Assembly: GCA_943359345.1 (NCBI GenBank) | Contig: CALRHE010000003.1 | Coordinates: forward strand, 82 to 64,081 | DNA: 64,000 nt | Reading direction: 5' to 3' | Origin: Candidatus Uhrbacteria bacterium | Lineage (GTDB): Bacteria; Patescibacteriota; Patescibacteriia; UBA9934 | Shown: piece after piece, positions 5,107-30,663 of the stretch | Numbering within the stretch: the first letter of the stretch is position 1 | Layout: each line of letters begins with the position of its first letter | The notes under the pieces: model-generated | The model's database searches: none | Told to the model about the DNA's origin: nothing | What the model saw: the letters and a program-made list of their open reading frames with translations, nothing else | Position numbers and translations under genes: made by a program

Positions 5107-5562
5107 ATGCCACTGTTAGTTATTTTTATCGTTATGAAGTTGTCAGCCGCTTTAGACCTGGTCCAAAACGATCTGCCCCTTGTTGTCAGAGACAAAACCT
5201 TTGCTCCGCGAGGCATTGAAGAGGCCAAACTAGAAACCGGGGAGAGCGTCTACTGGGTTTATACCAAGGACGGCATGTGGCTATCCTTTGATCCAGACGG
5301 TGAGGAGATCATTCTCTTTGAAGATATTGACGAAGAGCTTGAGCCAGAGGACGACACAGTTGTGTATCAGGGCGAAGACTACGAGTTTTCGTACGAAGGT
5401 ATTGCCAAGGTGGACGATGATGACGGTGGAACTACGACTAACTTCAAGGATTACGAGAACGGTGATGGTGACTTGGTGCGGATCATGGAAGATGATTCTA
5501 CCGGAGATAAATCATACGCATACGGCATCAAAATTACCGAAGAAGATCTGCAAGAAGCGTAA
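5107..5562 (+). CDS. Hypothetical acidic protein (D/E-rich C-terminal half), probably from a leaderless transcript.
   Basis: A TATACT -10-like hexamer at 5096-5101 ends 6 nt before the ATG and there is no SD. The start could also be the internal Met at 5134. Confidence 0.45.
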   Translation: MPLLVIFIVMKLSAALDLVQNDLPLVVRDKTFAPRGIEEAKLETGESVYWVYTKDGMWLSFDPDGEEIILFEDIDEELEPEDDTVVYQGEDYEFSYEGIAKVDDDDGGTTTNFKDYENGDGDLVRIMEDDSTGDKSYAYGIKITEEDLQEA

Positions 5563-5609
5563 TCCTCATCCTCATCCTTACCATACCTACTCATTTGCCT
5601 CTCAGATCA

Positions 5610-5705
5610 GGACGGATAGAGACGGATAAGCACGGATGCGAATAATCGTAGCGTTCACTGGAATCGACATTACATCCGTCCACATCCGTCTCTATCCGTG
5701 CTTAT
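5610..5705. repeat. Family-1 palindromic element: ACGGAT decamer repeats forming a long imperfect hairpin.
   Basis: ACGGATAGAGACGGAT (5612-5627) is the exact reverse complement of 5684-5699. An inner CGGATG/CATCCG pair and 10-bp-phased GACGGATAGA|GACGGATAAG|CACGGATGCG units are present. Homologous copies lie at 36465 and 32053. Confidence 0.7.
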
Positions 5706-5742
5706 GGAGGAGATATGTAGTTGGTTTGGTAAGCTGTAATCT

Positions 5743-7731
5743 GTGTCTACATTGGAGCGGAGGAATCGAGCTCAAGATAACGGTTGGCGCTTACGCGCTC
5801 TCCGTTTTTTGTTTCTTGCCATAGCCTTGGTTGTCATTGCGCGTTTATTCATGATTCAAATTTGGGACGGCGCCACCTACAAAGCCTTGGCCGAAGGCCA
5901 ATATTCGCTCTATGAACAATTAGTCCCTGAGCGCGGACGAATTTTTGTTAGAGATCACGGTGACGACACTGAGTATCCCGTGGCTACGACTGCGCCTAAA
6001 GCCTTTGTTTACGCCGATCCTCGCCTGGTGACTGATCCAGTGGCGCTGGGTATAGACATTGCTAAAATTTTAAAACTCGAAGGACTAGAGGAGTACGAAC
6101 GTTATGTGACGCTTGAACAATTACGCGCTGCTGGGCGCTTCACTGAAGCCCAGGAGCTAGAAAATCTCATGCGCCAGGACCGGCTCACTAAAGCTGCGGC
6201 TGAAGTTGATGAGCCTACGCCGGAACTAGTTTTAGTCACCGAACCGGTCGTGCTTGATCAAGCAGTCCCCGAAACCGTGGCTGAAGTGGCGCTTGTCGAG
6301 CCGTTCACACTTGACGATAACCCAGTCTTTGCTCTCATAGCTCGCTTGAGCAAACCTAATGACCCGTATGAGCCCGTGGCGCGTAATGTGAGTGATGAGC
6401 AGCTGGATTTGATTAAGACCATCGAGACCGAAGCTCTAGACTACATTGTTGAGGACACTCGTTCTTACACGGAACCTGGATTTGGCGGACAGGTGTTAGG
6501 CTTCTTGGGTAAACAGGACGACGGTCAGCCCATAGGCTTGTATGGGCTCGAGGGTTTTTTTGATGATTTTTTATCTGGCCAGGCCGGTCAGTTGTATTCG
6601 CAGACCGATATTTCCGGCCATTGGATTGGTGTAGGTGATAGACACTTCAAACCGGCTATCGACGGCGGTGACATGTTGTTAACCATTGACCGCACCTTGC
6701 AAGTTGAGGTCTGCAAAATTTTGACGCGTGGGGTTGAAAAGTTTAAGGCTGATACAGGTACTGCAATTGTGCTTGAACCTGCGACCGGTAGAGTTTTAGC
6801 TATGTGTGGTGCTCCTGATTTTTATCCGGCCGAGTATTCTAAGGTTGAAGACGCCTCAGTCTATAACAACACCGCTATCTTTACGGCTTATGAGCCGGGT
6901 TCAGTGTTTAAGCCTGTGACTATGGCGGCAGCTATTGATGTTGACGTGGTCACACCTGAGTCTCGTTTTACGGACCCTGGGTATGTGGAGATAGATGAAT
7001 TTACCATTCACAATGCGGCTGACAAAGTTTTTGGTAATGTTTCAATGATTGAAGTACTTGAAGAATCAATTAACACCGGTATGGTTTGGGTCATGCGACA
7101 AACTGGTCGTGATCGCTTTCAGGATTACGTAGAAAAATTTGGTTTTGGTCAGCTGACAGGTATAGATTTGAAGACTGAAGTGGCGGGTAATACTAGTTTA
7201 CTCGATGAGCGTGCCGAGGTGTATCCTGCGACTGCGTCTTTTGGTCAGGGTATTACTACCACACCCCTTCAGATAGTAAACGCTTACGCGGCTTTGGCGA
7301 ACGGCGGGATGCTCATGAAGCCTTATATCGTGGATGAGCTCCGCTATCCTGACGGCACAGTTGAAAAGGTGCTACCACAAGAAGTTCGCCAGGTGGTCAC
7401 GCCTTCAACGGCTACTACGATTGGTGCCATGTTGGTGTCAGTAGTTGAGTACGGACACGGTAAGCGGGCAGGGGTTCCAGGTTATTACATTGGGGGTAAA
7501 ACCGGTACGGCTCAGATTGCCCGGAACGGCGTTTACTCAGAGACTGAATTTAATGGTACCTTTGCTGGTTATGGGCCTGTTCAAGATCCACGCTTTGCCA
7601 TGATCGTTAAGATTGAGAACCCCAAAGACGGAGTAGTCTATGCGGAAAGTACGGCTGCGCCTATTTTTGGAGAAATCGCCGATTTTCTGCTTGAGTACTA
7701 CGGCGTTGCTCCAGAGCGATCCATCGAGTAG
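5743..7731 (+). CDS. ftsI: Penicillin-binding protein 2 / FtsI-like peptidoglycan transpeptidase.
   Basis: 662 aa with a GTG start, an N-terminal TM helix, and SVFK (SxxK), SIN (SxN) and KTGTA (KTG) motifs. Confidence 0.8.
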   Translation: MSTLERRNRAQDNGWRLRALRFLFLAIALVVIARLFMIQIWDGATYKALAEGQYSLYEQLVPERGRIFVRDHGDDTEYPVATTAPKAFVYADPRLVTDPVALGIDIAKILKLEGLEEYERYVTLEQLRAAGRFTEAQELENLMRQDRLTKAAAEVDEPTPELVLVTEPVVLDQAVPETVAEVALVEPFTLDDNPVFALIARLSKPNDPYEPVARNVSDEQLDLIKTIETEALDYIVEDTRSYTEPGFGGQVLGFLGKQDDGQPIGLYGLEGFFDDFLSGQAGQLYSQTDISGHWIGVGDRHFKPAIDGGDMLLTIDRTLQVEVCKILTRGVEKFKADTGTAIVLEPATGRVLAMCGAPDFYPAEYSKVEDASVYNNTAIFTAYEPGSVFKPVTMAAAIDVDVVTPESRFTDPGYVEIDEFTIHNAADKVFGNVSMIEVLEESINTGMVWVMRQTGRDRFQDYVEKFGFGQLTGIDLKTEVAGNTSLLDERAEVYPATASFGQGITTTPLQIVNAYAALANGGMLMKPYIVDELRYPDGTVEKVLPQEVRQVVTPSTATTIGAMLVSVVEYGHGKRAGVPGYYIGGKTGTAQIARNGVYSETEFNGTFAGYGPVQDPRFAMIVKIENPKDGVVYAESTAAPIFGEIADFLLEYYGVAPERSIE

Positions 7732-11488: not shown

Positions 11489-13180
11489 ATGGAGGTTATG
11501 CTCAACGAAGTCTTTTTGGAATTCGCAACGGTGATTGTGTCGGCTGGTGTGCTTTCGATTGTGGCCCACAAATTCCGCCAACCCTTGATTATTGGTTACA
11601 TCATTACGGGCGTGTTTGTTGGTTCTAGCTTTCTTGGCTTTGCACACTCGTTTGAAATTTTTGAGGCGCTGTCGTCTGTCGGTATAGCCTTGCTGTTATT
11701 TATTGTTGGATTAAATTTAAACTGGCGCAATATTCATGACCTTGGTTGGGTGGCTCTGCTGACGGGCCTAGGGCAGGTCGTGATTACCGCGTTGGCCGGT
11801 TTTGGTTTAGCGCAGCTACTCAATTTTAATGTCACAACTAGTTTGTTCCTGGGGCTAGCTCTGGCTTTTTCATCCACGATTATCATAGTTAAACTCTTAA
11901 GCGACCAAGACGATATTGATCGCTTGCACGGTCGGATTTCGGTCGGCATCTTATTAGTCCAGGATTTGATCGCCATGATGATTCTCCTGTGGCTGGCTGC
12001 TTATGCTGACGGAGGTTCGCTGACGACGATGTTAACGGTTTCGGCACTTAAGGGTGTGGCGGCTCTTGTGGGTTTGTGGTTGTTTGCAAAATTTATCATC
12101 CCGCAGCTTTTTCGTTACGCAGCCAGGTCTCAAGAACTTTTGTTTCTGGTGGCTTTAGCGTGGTGCTTCGCAGTTGCGTCCGGCCTACAGTTGCTTGGTT
12201 TTAGTCTTGAGATCGGGGCCTTACTGGCGGGTATTTCACTCGCCGGCACAGGCTTTCAACATGAAATTGAGGCCCGGATTCGACCTTTGCGCGATTTTTT
12301 CTTGATTTTATTTTTCGTGGTACTCGGCACCAACCTAGCTACTGACCAAGTTATTAGTCTAGCCGTGCCGATAGCAATCTTTAGCGTATTTACACTCATC
12401 GTCAAGCCCATTGTGACCATGGTCATTATGCGGCTAATGGGTTATCACCCACGGACTGGTTTCTTAACGGGTACCACCTTGGCGCAGGTAAGCGAATTTT
12501 CGTTTATTCTCATCGCCGGAGGTATTAGCCTTGGCCTGATTGGGACAGACGTTTTGTCTCTAGTCACAGCGGTGGCCTTAATCACCATTGCTTGCTCGTC
12601 ATACATGATTACGATTAACGAGCGAGCTTACGATTGGCTAGCCGCTTTTTGGCCCAGCCTAAAGTTACGAGCTGATGATAACCCCGACAATCAAGGTCCA
12701 GCTCCAGATGTGGTGTTATTAGGCTTGGACAACATGGGCAAGAAAATTTTACCCCAAGTTGCGGCCCTGACAGACAATTATTTGGTTCTCGATTTTAATC
12801 CAGCCGTGATTGAGGAACTTGAACAAGCAGGGGTTAAGGCCGTTTATGGTGACGCTGGCAATGATGAGGTTCTAAAATTTGTCAGAGCTCACACCGCTAA
12901 GTTAACTATTTCCGCTATTCCAGACATGGCTGTCAATGAAGCTATTTTAGACTTCATGAAACAACATAAAGCCAGGGGGACGGTCATTGTGTCAGTCAAA
13001 GCAGCTGCTGATGCTGCTCGTTGTTACGCCCTGGGCGCTACCTTTGTGATTGTACCAACTGAGCTTGGCGGCGAGCATTTTGCTCAACTCTTAAAAAAGC
13101 AAAAAACTTTAAAATCGCAGTGGGGTGGCCTAGGTAAAAAAGCTTGGCACAGACTGGAAGCCGAGCGCGACCAAAGCTAG
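11489..13180 (+). CDS. CPA2-family cation/proton antiporter with a C-terminal RCK/TrkA-N domain.
   Basis: About 12 TM helices followed by a soluble Rossmann-like C-terminal domain. The architecture is Kef-type. Confidence 0.65.
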   Translation: MEVMLNEVFLEFATVIVSAGVLSIVAHKFRQPLIIGYIITGVFVGSSFLGFAHSFEIFEALSSVGIALLLFIVGLNLNWRNIHDLGWVALLTGLGQVVITALAGFGLAQLLNFNVTTSLFLGLALAFSSTIIIVKLLSDQDDIDRLHGRISVGILLVQDLIAMMILLWLAAYADGGSLTTMLTVSALKGVAALVGLWLFAKFIIPQLFRYAARSQELLFLVALAWCFAVASGLQLLGFSLEIGALLAGISLAGTGFQHEIEARIRPLRDFFLILFFVVLGTNLATDQVISLAVPIAIFSVFTLIVKPIVTMVIMRLMGYHPRTGFLTGTTLAQVSEFSFILIAGGISLGLIGTDVLSLVTAVALITIACSSYMITINERAYDWLAAFWPSLKLRADDNPDNQGPAPDVVLLGLDNMGKKILPQVAALTDNYLVLDFNPAVIEELEQAGVKAVYGDAGNDEVLKFVRAHTAKLTISAIPDMAVNEAILDFMKQHKARGTVIVSVKAAADAARCYALGATFVIVPTELGGEHFAQLLKKQKTLKSQWGGLGKKAWHRLEAERDQS

Positions 13181-21077: not shown

Positions 21078-21584
21078 ATGCACGATGATCTTAGAGAAGG
21101 CGTGAATCTGCTTAGCCCTGAGGCAGGCCCGCGGGCAACCGAGGCGGGTTTTGAAGTTGAAGACGCTGCACCCGAGTCAGCTCCACGACGTGATGAAACT
21201 TCTAGTCTTGATAAGCAGCAGCTGGCAAACGTCAAAGCAACCATCATCTACCAGTCGCCGACAGTTGAGTTACCCAGCAAAGATCCGGTCCTAACTAGAA
21301 TTGAAGATATTTTGGCAGAGAATTTGGGGGAGCTTTACTCACAATTGCCCGAGGACAAGCGTGAAGCTTTTAAACACAAGGGTGAAGAAGTGGCTAGCGC
21401 CATTCACGCCATGATGACTACGGCCCGAGTTAAAGCTCATCAGATTTTAAGGTTGCTCGGGGATTGGCTACACCTGATCCCTGGAGTCAACGTGTATTTT
21501 TTGCAACAGGAAGCCAAGCTTAAGCTGGATAAGGTTATGGACTACGTGGATGAACAAGCTAAGTCATCACAAGACGTCATGTGA
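21078..21584 (+). CDS. Hypothetical protein translationally coupled (ATGA overlap) to the downstream ATPase.
   Basis: ORF of 168 aa with no recognisable motifs and no TM helix. Its stop overlaps the start of the 835-aa ATPase. Confidence 0.45.
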   Translation: MHDDLREGVNLLSPEAGPRATEAGFEVEDAAPESAPRRDETSSLDKQQLANVKATIIYQSPTVELPSKDPVLTRIEDILAENLGELYSQLPEDKREAFKHKGEEVASAIHAMMTTARVKAHQILRLLGDWLHLIPGVNVYFLQQEAKLKLDKVMDYVDEQAKSSQDVM

Positions 21585-24088
21585 TTGGTGCTCAACAACT
21601 CCAAGCTATCTTAATGTCAGTTCTGCCGACGCTCATCATTTTGGGAGTTCTTTTAGTTATTCTCAGTTTGGCTGCTTGGAAGCTGCGCCGGCGCTTTATG
21701 AAGCGAGCCCAAGCCCGTGATGGGGCCAATACCTTGGTTACCTTGCGCATCACGATTCCACGTTTTAAAAATGATGAAGACACCAAGCAGGCTGACAATT
21801 CAAGCAATCAGAAAGATAAGATCGCTGTGGCGGAAACTTTATTCTCGGCTTTGGGTGGACTCAAGCCGGAGCGAGGTTTTTGGAGCTGGTTAGTCGGGCG
21901 CACCGATAACTTTGCGCTTGAGATTGTGGCCCACGAAAAACTTGTGACTTTTTACGTCACAGTACCCCGTCGTTATCAAGAATTTGTAGAACAGCAAATT
22001 CATGCGCAGTGGAGCGACACCTTTGTTGAGCCGGTCGAGGATTACAACATGTTTGCGCCTACTGGCACAGTTGTGGCCGGTTACTTGAAATTTAAGAAAG
22101 AAAACTTATTACCGCTAAAAACTTATAAAGATATTGACGGCGACCCTTTGAACGCACTTACAAACGCCCTGTCTAAGGTGGGGGAGAGTGACGGCCTGGC
22201 CATTCAATACGTATTGCGACCGGCAGCTAGTGGTTGGAGATCGCTCGGTTTGAAGGTCGTCAAAAACATGCAGGCGGGCATGACGTTTAATGAGGCTAAG
22301 CACGGTAAAAAATCACACAGTTGGTTTGCTAACAAGGATACGCTCGAAAAAGACAAGGAAAAAATGCGTGAACGCAAACTTTCGTCCGCCGAAACCAAGA
22401 TGCTTGAAGGTATTGAGAATAAGCTCAGTAAAGCCGCGCTAGAGACCACCATTCGGGTAGTGGCTTCGGCTGGCACCAGCGAGCAAGCCATGATGTATCT
22501 GACTAATGTCTTACAGGCTTTTGGCCAATACAACATTTACGAGTACGGTAATGCTTTTGAGAAGAGTATTCCGTCTTCCAGACACGCCATCATCGAGGGT
22601 TTTATTTTCCGCACGCATAGTTCTAAGCATAGCTTGATTTTGACCACTGAAGAGCTGGCTAGTTTGTGGCACTTGCCGTTGCCCACCACTGAAACCCCGA
22701 ATATTCGCTGGATGAATGCGCGTACAGCGCCGGCACCCACCAACACCCCAACCAGCGGTTTGCACCTGGGTTTCAATGTCTACCGTGGTCGCCAGACCGA
22801 GATTTACATGCAGGACGCTGATCGACGGCGTCACATGTACATGATCGGTAAAACTGGTTCTGGTAAGACTGAGTTAATCAAGAACCTGGCCCTACAAGAT
22901 ATCAAAAATGGTAAAGGCGTAGCTGTGATTGATCCGCACGGTGATTTGGCCGACGACTTGTTGGGCTTGATTCCCAAGGAACGCTTGGATGACGTGATTT
23001 ATTTCAACCCTTCTGACCTAGAGCGTCCGATGGGCTTGAATATGCTTGAGGCGCCTGATGAAAACATGCGAGATTTTGTGGTCCAGGAAATGATCAGTAT
23101 TTTCTACATGTTATTTCCGCCGGAGATGATCGGTCCTATGTTCGAGCACAACATGCGTAACTACATGTTGACACTCATGGCCGACGTGGATAATCCTGGC
23201 ACCATTGTTGAGATCCCGCGCATGATTTCCGATGACGCTTTTCAAAAAGCCTGGGTGGCCAAGGTTAAGGATCCGCTCGTGCGGTCTTTCTGGGAAGACG
23301 AAATGGCTAAAACCTCTGATTATCACAAGAGTGAAATGATGGGCTACCTGGTGTCTAAGGTAGGTCGGTTTGTAGAGAACGAAATGATGCGCAATATCAT
23401 CGGGCAGACTAAGTCTGCTTTCAATTTCAGGGACATCATGGATAACGGCAAGATTTTGTTGGTTAACTTGTCGAAAGGTAAAACTGGTGAAGTTAACGCC
23501 TCACTTCTTGGTTTGATTTTAGTGGCTAAATTACAGATGGCCGCATTCTCTAGAGCCGATGTGCCTGAAGATCAACGACAAGACTTTTATTTGTACATTG
23601 ACGAATTCCAGAACTTCGTGACCCCTTCAATTGCGACCATTCTGTCTGAGGCTCGGAAGTATCGCCTGAATTTAGTGCTTGCTCACCAGTACATGGGGCA
23701 GCTGGTGCGTGATGGCAAGCCAGAAATCCGTGACGCTGTGCTTGGTAACGTCGGTACCATGATGGTGGCCCGGGTTGGTCCTGAGGATATTGAAACACTA
23801 GGTAAAGTGTTCGAACCAACGTTTACCGGGCATGATTTAATGAATACCGACATGTTCACTTGGAACGTGAAGATGATCATCAACAACGCTCAAGCCAAAC
23901 CGTTTACCATGGAAGCTTATCCGCCCACCAAGGCCAGCCGACAGGTGGCCGAGGCCCTTAAGGACATTTCTCGTCTCCAGTACGGGCAGGATAAAGATTC
24001 AGTCGCCAATGACATTTTAGAGCGAGCTGGCTATGCCTCACGTAAGCAGGTTCCTCCCACACCACCGTCGGTACCAACGAGTTTATAG
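21581..24088 (+). CDS. Membrane-anchored VirB4/VirD4-superfamily (TraC/TrbE/TraG-like) type-IV-secretion-type ATPase.
   Basis: N-terminal TM helix. A Walker A (GKTGSGKT) at about residue 425 is followed by a VIDPHGD motif, then Walker B (YIDEFQNF) and an LVLAHQYMGQL (ATQS-like) motif. Confidence 0.55.
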   Translation: MIGAQQLQAILMSVLPTLIILGVLLVILSLAAWKLRRRFMKRAQARDGANTLVTLRITIPRFKNDEDTKQADNSSNQKDKIAVAETLFSALGGLKPERGFWSWLVGRTDNFALEIVAHEKLVTFYVTVPRRYQEFVEQQIHAQWSDTFVEPVEDYNMFAPTGTVVAGYLKFKKENLLPLKTYKDIDGDPLNALTNALSKVGESDGLAIQYVLRPAASGWRSLGLKVVKNMQAGMTFNEAKHGKKSHSWFANKDTLEKDKEKMRERKLSSAETKMLEGIENKLSKAALETTIRVVASAGTSEQAMMYLTNVLQAFGQYNIYEYGNAFEKSIPSSRHAIIEGFIFRTHSSKHSLILTTEELASLWHLPLPTTETPNIRWMNARTAPAPTNTPTSGLHLGFNVYRGRQTEIYMQDADRRRHMYMIGKTGSGKTELIKNLALQDIKNGKGVAVIDPHGDLADDLLGLIPKERLDDVIYFNPSDLERPMGLNMLEAPDENMRDFVVQEMISIFYMLFPPEMIGPMFEHNMRNYMLTLMADVDNPGTIVEIPRMISDDAFQKAWVAKVKDPLVRSFWEDEMAKTSDYHKSEMMGYLVSKVGRFVENEMMRNIIGQTKSAFNFRDIMDNGKILLVNLSKGKTGEVNASLLGLILVAKLQMAAFSRADVPEDQRQDFYLYIDEFQNFVTPSIATILSEARKYRLNLVLAHQYMGQLVRDGKPEIRDAVLGNVGTMMVARVGPEDIETLGKVFEPTFTGHDLMNTDMFTWNVKMIINNAQAKPFTMEAYPPTKASRQVAEALKDISRLQYGQDKDSVANDILERAGYASRKQVPPTPPSVPTSL

Positions 24089-24090
24089 GT

Positions 24091-24207
24091 TTAGAAATTA
24101 CAAAATTAGATATTAGCAGAGAATAGAAAAGAGTACTTAGAATCGTTCCGTTTCAGTCAAATTTCTATTCTCTAATAGCTGCTAATATCTAATTTTGTAA
24201 TTTCTAA
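24091..24207. repeat. Family-2 AT-rich palindromic element, copy 1 (core ATTACAAAATTAGATATTAGCAG in both arms).
   Basis: Inverted repeat of about 40 bp (24091-24129 versus 24162-24207) with a 32-nt loop and one 6-nt indel (CTATTA) between arms. A second copy lies at 30506-30618. Confidence 0.75.
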
Positions 24208-24230
24208 TCCGTAGGGTAATATTCCGCCAT

Positions 24231-26051: not shown

Positions 26052-26125
26052 TCCGGGATCGTCTAAAGGCAGGACGAGGGACTCTGAATCCCTTAATCTT
26101 GGTTCGAATCCAAGTCCCGGAACCA
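26052..26125 (+). tRNA. tRNA-Gln (anticodon CUG), with an encoded CCA end.
   Basis: Manual cloverleaf fold. Acceptor TCCGGGA/TCCCGGA (U1:A72 as in bacterial tRNA-Gln), D-stem GTCT/GGAC with a GG loop, anticodon stem AGGGA/TCCCT, loop CT-CTG-AA, T-arm CTTGG-TTCGAAT-CCAAG, discriminator A and CCA. Confidence 0.85.
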
Positions 26126-26166
26126 CAAAAACACCTTTGCTTCGGCGGAGGTGTTTTTGTGGTTCC
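26125..26166 (+). terminator. Long hairpin capped by a UUCG tetraloop, acting as an intrinsic terminator after tRNA-Gln.
   Basis: ACAAAAACACCUUUGC-UUCG-GCGGAGGUGUUUUUGU. The inner GC-rich stem is followed by a U5 tract. Together with the tRNA 3' end it forms a 56-nt palindrome (26115-26170). Confidence 0.6.
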
Positions 26167-26292
26167 GGGACAGAGAAAGCCACCTGCTTGGCTTTCGACG
26201 GATTCGAACGCCGGAGCGATGTGCAGATACCAATCGGCACTGCGAGGCGGTGGCCAGGCCGATGGGAGTGACGGCGACCCGAGAGCCGAGGC

Positions 26293-26313
26293 CGAATCCA
26301 AGTCCCGGAACCA
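26293..26313 (+). repeat. Direct duplicate of the 21-nt 3' end of tRNA-Gln (CGAATCCAAGTCCCGGAACCA), an att-like integration scar.
   Basis: Identical to 26105-26125. There is no upstream D-arm or T-stem partner, so it is a fragment and not a second tRNA. Confidence 0.7.
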
Positions 26314-26385
26314 TCACGACCTGTTCCTACAGACCCACCTTCGCTGATTAGCTTCGGTGGGCAAGCCGGGACAGGGGGTGACCAA

Positions 26386-26420
26386 GAAAACCCGTACTCT
26401 GCATTGAGTACGGGTTTTCG
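26386..26420. terminator. Bidirectional intrinsic terminator (GAAAA-CCCGTACTC-tgcatt-GAGTACGGG-TTTTCG).
   Basis: A 9-bp perfect stem with an A-tract upstream and a U-tract downstream. It lies just past the 3' end of the minus-strand recombinase fragment. Confidence 0.7.
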
Positions 26421-26445
26421 ATTGGATCTAGTGTTCAATGCTCTT

Positions 26446-26736
26446 TTACAAATGAGCGAGATGCTGTTCGAGTTCGCGGATAAACCCCTGATCCACCATA
26501 TCCACGATTGTCCCAAAATCCCTTGCGTTACGGTTCAAGCGATCTGGTGCCCAGGCAAGGATGCCGTCGAACCGCTTCAGCTTTATATCGTCAATGAGAC
26601 GATTGAATTCTGGTCGTTGGCCTGACGCCTTGGCTGAATGGCTTTCACGACGTATCTCGGTGACGAGCAATCCGTCTCGTTCCGCCGTGGCAAGCATCTC
26701 TTTCACCTGTGCTTCGAAGCTCCCTATATTCTCCAT
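26446..26736 (-). pseudogene. Truncated serine recombinase (resolvase/invertase catalytic domain only, 96 aa).
   Basis: IGSFEAQ (catalytic Ser/Gln position), SGQRPEFNRLIDDI and ILAWAPDRLNRNARDF match the resolvase core (RVSTxxQ ... SGxxxxRPxLxxLL ... VVxKLDRLGRS). The ORF stops right after helix D and has no E-helix or HTH domain. Confidence 0.6.
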
Positions 26737-26750
26737 ACGTTCGCCTTGTT

Positions 26751-26776
26751 ATGTGGCATGGACATTAATGCCACAT
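26751..26776. promoter_or_regulatory. 26-bp dyad (ATGTGGCATGGA-CA-TTAATGCCACAT), a candidate recombinase crossover/binding site.
   Basis: The 9-bp perfect arms extend to 12-bp half-sites matching 10 of 12 around a central CA dinucleotide. It lies 15 nt upstream of the recombinase fragment start. hix/gix/res subsites have the same 26-bp size and architecture. Confidence 0.45.
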
Positions 26777-26854
26777 TTGTCCGGGGTGCCTAGTCCGGGG
26801 AGTAGGTAAGTTATATGGAGTAAAAAGGTCGTTTCGTGATAAAATAATTACAAT

Positions 26855-28561
26855 ATGGCTCCTCGAGAATTTCCGCGATCCCCCGAACATCAACAACAAA
26901 GAGATGAGCTCGCTCGATCCGTTAAAGTGGACCGACAAGAACGCGACGAACTTAGACAGGAGTCCAAAACGCTTACAGGGCGGTTGCGGAAAGTTCTTGG
27001 CGGTAAAGATGCAAACGCGTTGGCGGATGTGGCGGCGAGGTCGGCCGATGAAAAACTGGCAGTTGGTCGAAGCGGGCTTGAGACAAAAGAGCGGGCACAT
27101 GAGTGGGATCAACTTGCCTTTACGCTGGAAAAAGCCGAGGAATTCGTTCGGCGAATACCGAGTATCGCAGAAGATGAAACGGAAAAGATGTGGCGAGCCG
27201 TGACTTCTCATCGTTCAGTTTTTGAAGAAGCATTGCAGGATTCGGAACGCGCAGGAGTCGTTCTCAAGCACCTCTCCTGGTTTTCACGTAATGGACGAGG
27301 AGCAAGTGGAAATGAGGCCGAAGCTGAATACTTCACATGGGTTCGTGAGCATCTGCCGTTTGTTGCAAGCTTGGCGGAAAAAGATGACGTAAATGCTCGT
27401 GGTGGATTTGCACGGGCGTTGGTCGACCTTTGGCGAAGGGTTCCCGAATCCCGAGATGAAGTTATCGCAATAATAAATGCGCATATAGATGTTATTGATG
27501 GTCTCGCGCGTACTGCAGAAGCGGATGCGGATTTTGCAGAGGCGCGGTCACTGCTTGGTGTTGTGCTTCGAAAGGGATCAAAAGAGGCAAAGGCTCAGGT
27601 AATGGAAAGTATCGGGTCGGTTTTTCGTCAGAAAGGCCAGCGCGCTGAAGATATTGTACGACTTGTATTTGATTGCGTGGGAGAGAATGTTAAAGATAGT
27701 GATGCGCTTGAACGGTCATTTGTCGCAAAACTTGCCGAAGCCTACGATATGCAGCCCGAGGGCTTGCTTCATGCATGGCGACTGTCACACGATAGAGGCG
27801 CAACGGTAGAACATATGCGATCGCTCTGTCGTCTTGAAGAACAAAGCCCTGGTGCGGCAAAACGTTTGGATGAAGATTTTGGCGTTCGCGCCTTCGCACG
27901 GTATCCTATAGAATTGCTCCTCCGACAAGCAGCCGATGCGGATAAAGGAAAGCCTTATGGCGTAATCATCATGGCGCGTGGCGATCATAACGGGAGTTTT
28001 CATCGACAAGCCTATAAGTGGTCGGATTTATTGAAAGATATAGGCGATACTCACGCTATCCGTATCATCGAAGCAGAAAGTAAGGATGAACTCACTGCGT
28101 ATGTATTAGGCATGTACCAGCGATATCAAGAGGACGGAAAGATATCGTTCGTACACATGAACGGTCACGGAAGTCCAGAGAGCATCAACCTCGGATACGA
28201 ACTCTTGCCATTTCAAGTGGATGAACGATTTGAGTTGCATCGTCTTCCTGGCCGTTTAGAAAAACAGCTCACTAAAAATGATTTATTTGGTGTTGGATAT
28301 CGCGAAGCTATAGGAATTTTTGAAGAGCATCCGACATTTGTACTTTCCTCCTGCTCAACAGGGGCGTCGCTAGGCATCGGACAGGAACTCTCGGCAATGT
28401 ACGGCGCAGAAGTTGTCGCGCCGCGTGATCCGACGAGCTTAGATCATATTCGAGCAAAGGTTGTGGATGGAAGAGTCCAGTTTGACGCCCGTTTCCAGGG
28501 CGGCGATTGGATTACGCGTCACTATGATCGAGGAAGGCTCATCGAGGCCCCTACGGAGTAG
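26855..28561 (+). CDS. Two-domain protein with an N-terminal charged alpha-helical region and a C-terminal caspase/CHAT-like (clan CD, C14-like) peptidase domain.
   Basis: A GVIIMARGDHNGSF beta-strand start leads to ISFVHMNGHG (hydrophobic strand then His-Gly), and about 65 aa later TFVLSSCSTG (hydrophobic strand then Cys). This mirrors the His/Cys dyad arrangement of metacaspase/CHAT domains. The gene is cargo next to the recombinase remnant. Confidence 0.5.
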   Translation: MAPREFPRSPEHQQQRDELARSVKVDRQERDELRQESKTLTGRLRKVLGGKDANALADVAARSADEKLAVGRSGLETKERAHEWDQLAFTLEKAEEFVRRIPSIAEDETEKMWRAVTSHRSVFEEALQDSERAGVVLKHLSWFSRNGRGASGNEAEAEYFTWVREHLPFVASLAEKDDVNARGGFARALVDLWRRVPESRDEVIAIINAHIDVIDGLARTAEADADFAEARSLLGVVLRKGSKEAKAQVMESIGSVFRQKGQRAEDIVRLVFDCVGENVKDSDALERSFVAKLAEAYDMQPEGLLHAWRLSHDRGATVEHMRSLCRLEEQSPGAAKRLDEDFGVRAFARYPIELLLRQAADADKGKPYGVIIMARGDHNGSFHRQAYKWSDLLKDIGDTHAIRIIEAESKDELTAYVLGMYQRYQEDGKISFVHMNGHGSPESINLGYELLPFQVDERFELHRLPGRLEKQLTKNDLFGVGYREAIGIFEEHPTFVLSSCSTGASLGIGQELSAMYGAEVVAPRDPTSLDHIRAKVVDGRVQFDARFQGGDWITRHYDRGRLIEAPTE

Positions 28562-28835
28562 AAACCGGAAGGGTTTTTCAGTGAGACATAGGGAGAAGTT
28601 CATATATCGCAATAATATTCCTGATATTAGCCGTAAATGTTTAAATGAGACGCTGTCTCAATACCCCGTATGTAGTGTCTTATTTGTCTCATTTCACCCC
28701 CAAGCCGTGTTCCACTTTGTGCCAGTTTTAACCCTCAGTTCTATCCGACCGGGACAGGGTTGGCAGGCAGGTAGAAGGGTGCCTCAAAGCCCCCTCATAG
28801 GCTCCAATCTAAACCGGGCCGCAGAACCAGTAAAA

Positions 28836-28864
28836 CCCCCAGACTTCGGTCGTGGGGTTTTATT
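28836..28864 (+). terminator. Intrinsic terminator with a UUCG tetraloop (CCCCAGAC-UUCG-GUCgUGGGG followed by UUUUAUU).
   Basis: An 8-bp stem with a 1-nt bulge is flanked by an A-tract and a U-tract. Confidence 0.6.
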
Positions 28865-28878
28865 GACCAGAGACAGTT

Positions 28879-30478: not shown

Positions 30479-30505
30479 AAGAAGAAGCAGAATACATTAA
30501 AGGAT

Positions 30506-30618
30506 CAGAAATTACAAAATTAGATATTAGCAGCTATTAGAGAAGTAGATATTAGACTCCTGATGGATTGGATCTAATTACTATTTTCTATTCTCTGCTA
30601 ATATCTAATTTTGTAATG
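30506..30618. repeat. Family-2 AT-rich palindromic element, copy 2.
   Basis: Left arm GAAATTACAAAATTAGATATTAGCAGCTATTAGAGAAG. The right arm is the reverse complement of CATTACAAAATTAGATATTAGCAGAGAATAGAAA. It sits in the divergent dus / RNase-J-like promoter region. Confidence 0.75.
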
Positions 30619-30663
30619 ACTAATCCTTCAAACTCCACACACCTTGCTATACTTGTATGTGTT

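Follow-up and report, generated by a model that had tools for sequence, protein, structure and literature searches.

The closest described counterparts of the locus analysed here are the integrative elements of large serine recombinases, represented by SCCmec with CcrB/CcrC, by Anabaena XisF and by the phage integrases of phrog_95, in which the recombinase gene is situated close to an end of the insert and points to the junction, the common core is short and the empty site is precise. The 3' ends of tRNA genes are classic integration sites, and islands of the tyrosine-integrase type typically show a duplication of 15-50 bp. We describe a segment (the islet) at positions 26314 to 28829 of a 64,000-nucleotide stretch of contig CALRHE010000003.1 from a Candidatus Uhrbacteria bacterium; this whole stretch is called the window. 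The islet is probably the decayed remnant of a large-serine-recombinase integrative element that would have been inserted site-specifically at the hexamer GAACCA, with a cargo gene encoding a helical domain followed by a predicted cysteine peptidase of clan CD.

The islet shares the above traits with the large-serine-recombinase elements, and its recombinase remnant matches their catalytic-domain subfamily best. Unlike them, it keeps ~84 of ~495 recombinase residues, without the nucleophile, and is 2.5 kb long with one intact gene. As in islands located at tRNA or tmRNA 3' ends, the target sequence is a 3' terminus of tRNA-Gln (...CCCGGAACCA), an intact example being present in a Buchananbacteria metagenome-assembled genome (MAG; L029); in contrast with these islands, the islet hit the tRNA-like end of a separate 154-nt element, and its duplication is of 6 bp instead of the length usual for tyrosine integrases. 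A previous reading of the window made from its letters (the sequence-only reading) had proposed a decayed integrative element beginning at tRNA-Gln. The island idea holds in that the segment is strain-variable and has a precise empty site, but its left boundary is at 26314 and not at the tRNA.

Empty site and limits of the islet

The empty site was found in GCA_943356555.1 (L087), a 34.9-kb contig of a near-identical strain, retrieved by exact look-up of the Dus protein of the window. Its Dus is identical to that of the window, its flanks are 87-99% identical, and its gene order is dus, a 79-amino acid (aa) open reading frame (ORF), flavokinase, a 443-nt gap, dnaX and a VirB4-like ATPase, both the recombinase fragment and the 568-aa cargo gene being absent at the locus. 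Two BLASTN alignments define the breakpoint: positions 11023-11691 of L087 correspond to window 29493-28824 (96.7% identity), and positions 11686-11950 to window 26313-26049 (88.7%, gapless). The six bases GAACCA are common to both alignments and occur as a single copy in L087, where the equivalent of window 26313 is joined straight to that of 28830. The L087 sequence thus reads tRNA-Gln, a hairpin, the 154-nt element ending in ...AAGTCCCGGAACCA, a terminator hairpin at once, and then flavokinase. The sequence-only reading had suggested comparing the tRNA-Gln locus with that of relatives, with an empty site expected to end at 26125; the empty site exists, but its junction is at GAACCA, past the 154-nt element.

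In the window, the left direct repeat (attL core) is at 26308-26313 and the right one (attR core) at 28824-28829, both read on the forward strand, and the inserted islet extends from 26314 to 28829 (2516 bp counting one GAACCA copy), as delimited by the BLASTN breakpoints, the empty-site sequence and independent assemblies. The junction alignment of the window left end, the window right end, L087 and a third relative (L001) is a textbook attL/attR/attB set. With respect to the features expected of an integrative element, the locus therefore displays a precise empty site and common-core direct repeats that are single in the empty site; as integrase it holds a dead fragment and no functional gene.

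The islet is present in five assemblies (L089, L091, L096, L097 and L001) and absent from L087. The occupied arrangement was retrieved in L089 and L096 (about 100% identical to the window), L097 and L091, which were assembled independently from other samples; it is not an assembly artefact. L001 is 97% identical to the window over 2.9 kb, and its homology starts exactly at GAACCA; to the left of this hexamer, L001 1-199 is unrelated DNA in which a + strand ORF ends (...FQVENIVG*) and no tRNA is present; this DNA may belong to a second element in tandem. A third junction on the same six bases argues for a recombination site over a chance deletion.

The right edge of the islet is the base of a UUCG-looped, terminator-like hairpin (28828/28830 to 28865, + strand; repeat search, L087 sequence and alignment). 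The sequence-only reading took this hairpin as bounding the island. It does stand at the right edge, but it belongs to the host, as part of the putative RNA gene described below, and not to the islet, because in L087 the corresponding hairpin (loop UACG) comes immediately after the structured element. Near the ends of the islet, the motif CCGGGACAG has three copies in 64 kb (0.4 expected), all at the locus (26165, 26366 and 28749); the two copies inside the islet are in direct orientation, are extended to CCGGGACAGGG, and are 52 nt away from the left end in one case and 64 nt away from the right GAACCA core in the other. As a separate observation on L001, its left flank (...GCGGCCAGA followed by GAACCA) loosely resembles the right end of the islet itself (...GGGCCGCA followed by GAACCA).

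Recombinase remnant

The remnant of a large serine recombinase occupies 96 codons at 26446-26736 on the reverse strand and was characterized by Pfam, tblastn, NCBIfam and PHROGs searches. It matches PF00239 (Resolvase) with an E-value of 9.1e-11 and 42.5 bits (cut-off 23.3), on profile positions 15-91 of 145 only, and corresponds to residues 20-103 of the 495-aa enzyme of L029 (42% identity by tblastn). A tblastn search of the window with this 495-aa enzyme returned nothing beyond residues 20-103. The gene is cut at both ends: the catalytic serine (YxRxS region), the recombinase domain, the zinc-ribbon and the coiled-coil DNA-binding domains are missing, the alignment with the L029 enzyme begins at residue 20 of the latter, past YARKST, and an in-frame TAA stands 5 codons upstream of the remnant ATG. 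The remnant is inactive because the serine nucleophile and all the DNA-binding domains are gone. The sequence-only reading had recognized a decayed serine recombinase, which these searches bear out; the invertase/resolvase type implied by its view of the adjacent dyad is replaced by the large serine integrase type, the nearest NCBIfam models being CcrB, CcrC and XisF, and the PHROGs match being phrog_95 integrase (2.8e-13), with the phage matches annotated as integrases.

A distance of 133 nt separates the remnant from the left junction, toward which it reads, and a bidirectional terminator-like hairpin with a perfect 14-bp stem, located by repeat search at 26386-26419, stands just past the stop codon of the remnant. 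In L029, the intact 495-aa large serine recombinase (5388-6886, on a contig that ends at 7119) is on the strand opposite tRNA-Gln(CUG), and its 3' end abuts and, as an ORF, overlaps the CCA end of the tRNA; the orientation of the remnant relative to tRNA-Gln is the same. The L029 recombinase is likely a live relative of an element family targeting the tRNA-Gln 3' end. By analogy with this arrangement, the ancestor of the remnant would have been the integrase responsible for the position of the islet at a 3' end of tRNA-Gln type.

Target of the insertion

The tRNA-Gln of the window (26052-26125, + strand, anticodon CUG) is intact, with CCA encoded (ARAGORN; Rfam RF00005, 61.5 bits). Its last 21 nt (26105-26125) are repeated exactly at 26293-26313 on the same strand, as the sequence-only reading had seen; this second copy was located by repeat search and is also found in the empty-site L087. 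It had been described as a bare scar, whereas it is one side (the 3' strand) of the stem that closes a conserved structured element. The 12-mer GTCCCGGAACCA within the repeat has 3 copies in 64 kb against 0.27 expected (0 of 100 shuffles reached 3), the third copy, overlooked in the sequence-only reading, being inverted at 26160-26171 and able to pair with the tRNA 3' end. Together these make a perfect 23-bp inverted repeat spanning 26114-26171 (arms 26114-26136 and 26149-26171; repeat search and pattern count), the core of which is a terminator-like hairpin right after the tRNA and the outer part of which is the tRNA 3' end with the inverted 12-nt copy; it is kept in L087 with one mismatch.

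The structured element, a candidate small RNA and the integration target (attB side), covers 154 nt at 26160-26313 (+ strand) and was delimited by folding, homologues and covariation. Its 12-bp closing stem (26160-26171/26302-26313) pairs the inverted copy with the second direct one, its folding energy is -77.6 kcal/mol (z -5.6), and its GC content is 60-62% against about 47% nearby. Homologues are present in L087 (11686-11839, reverse strand) and in another MAG, L037 (about 11674-11830, ~75% identical by BLASTN), whose DnaX is just 41% identical to that of the window, yet whose homologue is also located directly 3' of tRNA-Gln (anticodon UUG). From the three sequences (window, L037 and L087), RNAalifold predicted 55 pairs, with 92% of cells paired and 16 pairs changed on both sides, compared with 0-2 in slid controls; the observed covariation was reached in 0 of 500 shuffles. 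One hairpin is almost wholly rewritten between genomes with its ACCA loop kept. In L087 the element ends in front of a terminator of its own, and in L037 in front of a U-run.

No Rfam 15 family corresponds to this element, the matches being to tRNA and at chance level (E <= 1 for the window, E <= 10 for L037), and a whole-window Rfam search at gathering score gave nothing for it. No further copy was detected with two covariance models in about 1.3 Mb of Candidate Phyla Radiation (CPR) loci, where the element is found in 3 of ~60 dnaX/tRNA-Gln loci, and two of its conserved motifs had no match in viral contigs. ARAGORN found no tmRNA in the window. Five identities (signal recognition particle RNA, tmRNA, retron msr/msd, flavin mononucleotide riboswitch and degenerate tRNA) were considered and rejected, having no Rfam or ARAGORN support, and their expected motifs and partner genes being absent on reading of the sequence.

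On these comparative data, the 154-nt element is a conserved structured element and the attachment site. The simplest view of it is that of a small RNA gene having a terminator of its own, the target of the islet presumably being an RNA. It is possible, but at distinctly lower probability, that it is not a functional RNA and derives from the end, or is a miniature form, of an earlier element targeting tRNA-Gln, in which case the locus would hold two stacked integrations. Its last 21 nt are a tRNA 3' end, with the inverted 12-nt copy at its start, as would be expected of such a derivative; it is rare among the CPR loci; an identity of ~75% where the DnaX proteins share 41% suggests horizontal spread; and L087 and the window have the same 21-nt 3' strand, with 3 of 12 positions differing in the 5' strand of the 12-bp stem. 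(That the 3' strand is the same may be due to gene conversion with the tRNA, or to recombination having reset it repeatedly.) Against this, the two-sided pair changes indicate selection on structure, the 3' end in L037 repeats the local tRNA-Gln(UUG) over CGAATCC only, and the element has a terminator of its own (L087) or a U-run (L037) after it.

Cargo gene

The cargo gene (26855-28561, + strand; ORF call, dN/dS and family search) is intact and encodes 568 aa, divided into an all-helical N-terminal domain (roughly aa 1-289) and a conserved C-terminal part (aa 290-568) in which a clan-CD peptidase-like core comes after short helices. A word-indexed search with the protein gave three relatives only. 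HMMER against 1.84 billion cluster representatives (50% clustering) gave at least 1565 relatives at E <= 1e-3, of which 407 reached E <= 1e-30; almost all relatives align to residues about 290-565, and those with names are hypothetical proteins of Candidatus Levybacteria. The cargo is not an orphan. The C-terminal consensus comprises W..LE..PG..K.L..EFGI..F.RYP.ELL..Q, PYG, DHNGAF, GGHG and SCSTGA..GIGQ.LS. The protein does not belong to PF12770 (CHAT), PF00656 (Peptidase_C14) or PF14252 (DUF4347), the last being matched weakly in 3 of 60 relatives, with 1e-4 as the best E-value; a sequence search of the PDB with the N-terminal domain matched designed helical repeats only. Metagenome scans with the 568-aa protein and with a homologue from a more distant genome (P0002) found nothing, and no second copy of the cargo was found in the 64 kb of the window, nor among some 80 dnaX loci of CPR.

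In clan CD, a His (usually His-Gly) follows the third strand and a Cys the fourth. An AlphaFold2 (AF2) model of the C-terminal domain was built from an alignment of 8 sequences (a profile search of the domain gave 4 proteins) and reached a predicted local distance difference test (pLDDT) of 81.8 and a predicted template modelling score of 0.81. This model shows the alpha/beta fold of the caspase-haemoglobinase type, in agreement with the sequence-only reading, which had likened the C-terminus to a clan-CD (caspase/CHAT) peptidase; the structural alignments are at 8-15% identity. In the full-length AF2 model, the helical N-terminal half is mostly at pLDDT 70-90 and the protease domain is poor (30-50); its Foldseek matches (helical-repeat proteins, KaiC) were discarded as noise. 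Conservation and the AF2 secondary structure designate a candidate catalytic His438 (codon 28166-28168, + strand), in GHG after the third strand, and a candidate catalytic Cys500 (codon 28352-28354, + strand), in SCSTG after the fourth. His438 (H149 of the domain) is invariant in 28 sequences and conserved in >90% of 60, Cys500 is invariant in the family alignments, and in the domain model the two residues follow predicted strands E141-147 and E200-209, as in clan CD.

According to this model, the cargo C-terminus is a cysteine-peptidase fold of clan CD (CHAT/DUF4347/clostripain-like) with a conserved His438/Cys500 pair. The predicted His-Gly/Cys placement is shared with CHAT proteins (SAVED-CHAT 8tl0, TPR-CHAT/Csx29 7y83), DUF4347 Tce1 (9qpe), C11 clostripain-like peptidases, caspases, legumain and gingipain, and the domain order, helical domain then protease, is reminiscent of TPR-CHAT. 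Unlike these peptidases, the cargo has no family membership at the sequence level, its core is preceded by the conserved helical segment that opens the consensus above, and no genes of CRISPR, of cyclic oligonucleotide-based anti-phage signalling (CBASS) or of type VI secretion are associated with it. The protein would be an active, regulated protease, whose variable helical domain would control or target the protease domain.

Between the window and L001, the ratio of nonsynonymous to synonymous substitution rates (dN/dS) of the cargo is 0.11, and 66 codons differ, all but one in residues 41-263, the protease half being nearly identical. Judging from the sequences, the gene is maintained by purifying selection and is mosaic, and this mosaic divergence points to exchange between strains by recombination in the N-terminal domain. 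The cargo relatives occur in unrelated contexts: beside rpsP and trmD, two genes upstream of a VirB4-like ATPase, after a gene of the S30AE family, and near AsmA. At the nucleotide level, window 27000-27640 differs from L001 by ~10% over codons 41-263, with near 0% divergence elsewhere in the islet. We also observed that the relative lying two genes upstream of an ATPase is a distant member (P0155, in L095 1471-5570), and that this VirB4/DUF87/TrwB-like ATPase is of the same kind as that upstream of dnaX in the window.

The sequence-only reading had suggested a conflict/defence or toxin role for the cargo. In its most explicit form, the protein would be a toxin or anti-phage effector, a single-gene protease system triggered by a helical sensor like TPR-CHAT or SAVED-CHAT, and the location on a strain-variable islet, together with a variable N-terminal domain and a conserved protease domain, is what such a system could look like. 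We nevertheless regard this role as possible but rather doubtful: it is unsupported by the genomic context or by PADLOC, no nuclease, cyclase, gasdermin or immunity gene accompanies the cargo as a partner in the islet, the relatives lie among housekeeping genes (rpsP/trmD or the ribosomal S30AE family), and the low dN/dS indicates no diversifying selection.

Origin of the islet

The history that we consider probable is the following. An integrative element with a large serine recombinase would have inserted by site-specific recombination at GAACCA, this target being the last six bases of the tRNA-Gln-like 3' end of the 154-nt element and not those of the true tRNA-Gln, and the insertion would have separated the 154-nt element from its own terminator. 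Decay would have left the inactive 96-codon integrase piece and one intact, constrained gene. The islet would no longer be self-mobile, and its presence or absence between strains could reflect past integration, excision by a recombinase acting in trans, or homologous recombination of the flanks.

Several points weigh against this history or against the nature given to the cargo. The GAACCA identity is short (6 bp): it suits a serine integrase core but is no proof of one, and it could mediate a microhomology deletion in L087. P0002 is a cargo homologue from a more distant genome, 78% identical to the cargo of the window and placed at the same position, next to flavokinase and dus; given this position, the cargo gene may be an old resident lost by L087. 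The connection between the remnant and the insertion event is drawn by analogy. Finally, the Foldseek E-values supporting the cargo fold are weak (2e-3 or worse), the cargo has no match in Pfam (E <= 1), NCBIfam, PADLOC or PHROG, a PDB sequence search with its C-terminal domain gave no match, and its family has no conserved neighbourhood.

Some of these points would be explained if no insertion had taken place, the 2.5-kb segment being ancestral and lost in L087 by a chance deletion between GAACCA microhomologies, with the remnant an unrelated fossil. The position of P0002 and the 6-bp length of the repeat both speak for such a loss. We consider it improbable, however, as the junction of L001 is a third, different one at exactly the same GAACCA, the join in L087 restores a sensible unit of structured element and terminator, the integrase remnant is close to the junction and oriented like the intact L029 element abutting tRNA-Gln, and in distant relatives the interval from tRNA-Gln to dus is occupied by other genes. 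Upstream of P0002 is a 158-aa gene; a search with the DnaX C-terminus, aimed at this gene, returned one unrelated short contig.

A more far-reaching interpretation, to which we give similarly little credence, would extend the site-specific insertion in three directions: the 154-nt element would be a new small-RNA class whose tRNA-Gln-like end serves as a preferred or decoy integrase site sparing tRNA-Gln(CUG), the locus would be an active hotspot of stacked elements (with a second element in L001), and the cargo would be a new single-gene clan-CD effector family, mainly of CPR, acting in conflict with phages or with host cells. The proposal of the sequence-only reading that the 21-nt copies are an attL/attR-style scar, with an islet extending from the tRNA (26125) to about 28870, is very improbable: the repeat is exact and non-random and falls at a tRNA 3' end, but the copies were not made by the islet, because L087 keeps both of them and the 167-nt spacer and misses only 26314-28829, and the true junction repeats are the 6-bp GAACCA.

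Among integrative elements of Patescibacteria, which are poorly charted, this locus offers a clean attB/attL/attR triad for an element of serine-integrase type. The cargo belongs to a large caspase-fold family (at least 1565 clusters at 50% identity) whose named members are from CPR and which has no curated model, and would merit a Pfam entry. If the 154-nt element is a true RNA, these very reduced genomes gain a new small RNA, and the locus exemplifies integration at the tRNA-like terminus of a non-tRNA gene. The islet as a whole is an ordinary kind of element, a genomic fossil, of which the cargo and the target are uncharacterised; no major paradigm is changed, and an uncharacterised protease family together with an unexplained tRNA-like target makes the locus of moderate interest.

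Other features of the locus

Between the remnant and the cargo gene, the 118-nt divergent intergenic region contains a single dyad, ATGTGGCAT-N8-ATGCCACAT, identified by pattern search of the window at 26751-26776, 15 nt upstream of the remnant ATG. The sequence-only reading had presented it as a hix-like crossover site with 12-bp half-sites. The dyad is present at this place, but its symmetry is 9 of 12 bp per half-site (perfect 9-bp arms and an 8-nt spacer), no second copy was found in 64 kb even allowing 3 mismatches, and the analogy is unsupported. It resembles the hix/gix sites of Hin/Gin in its 26-bp span, its partial symmetry and its proximity to a serine-recombinase remnant; unlike them, for which two inverted 26-bp sites and an active invertase are required, it is single and has no inverted partner, so that there is no invertible segment, and the adjoining recombinase is of integrase type. 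The dyad is possibly an operator.

The DnaX of the window has its best GTDB matches in Patescibacteria (CPR) MAGs of Magasanikbacteria, Uhrbacteria and Komeilibacteria types, with only 34-51% identity on the full length, so that the window is from a CPR bacterium lacking a close representative at species level. Across CPR loci, a VirB4/DUF87-like ATPase, dnaX and tRNA-Gln are widely conserved in this order, the VirB4/DUF87/TrwB-like ATPase being located at 21581-24088 in the window. Downstream of tRNA-Gln, the gene content varies by lineage: in one relative (L040), a 169-aa unnamed ORF precedes dus, and in another (L027), four ORFs (roughly 300-460 aa) precede it. To the right of the islet, the genes named by the sequence-only reading were recovered, namely flavokinase (PF01687), then Dus.

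The window also contains two intergenic copies (24085-24210 and 30505-30625) of an AT-rich, long-hairpin element of ~125 nt, similar to miniature inverted-repeat transposable elements. These copies are 85% identical, in opposite orientation, and bracket the 6.3-kb dnaX..dus segment; ATTACAAAATTAGATATTAGCAG is exact in all four arm copies, and the RNA fold is at -51.6 kcal/mol (z -10.6). L087 also carries both copies.

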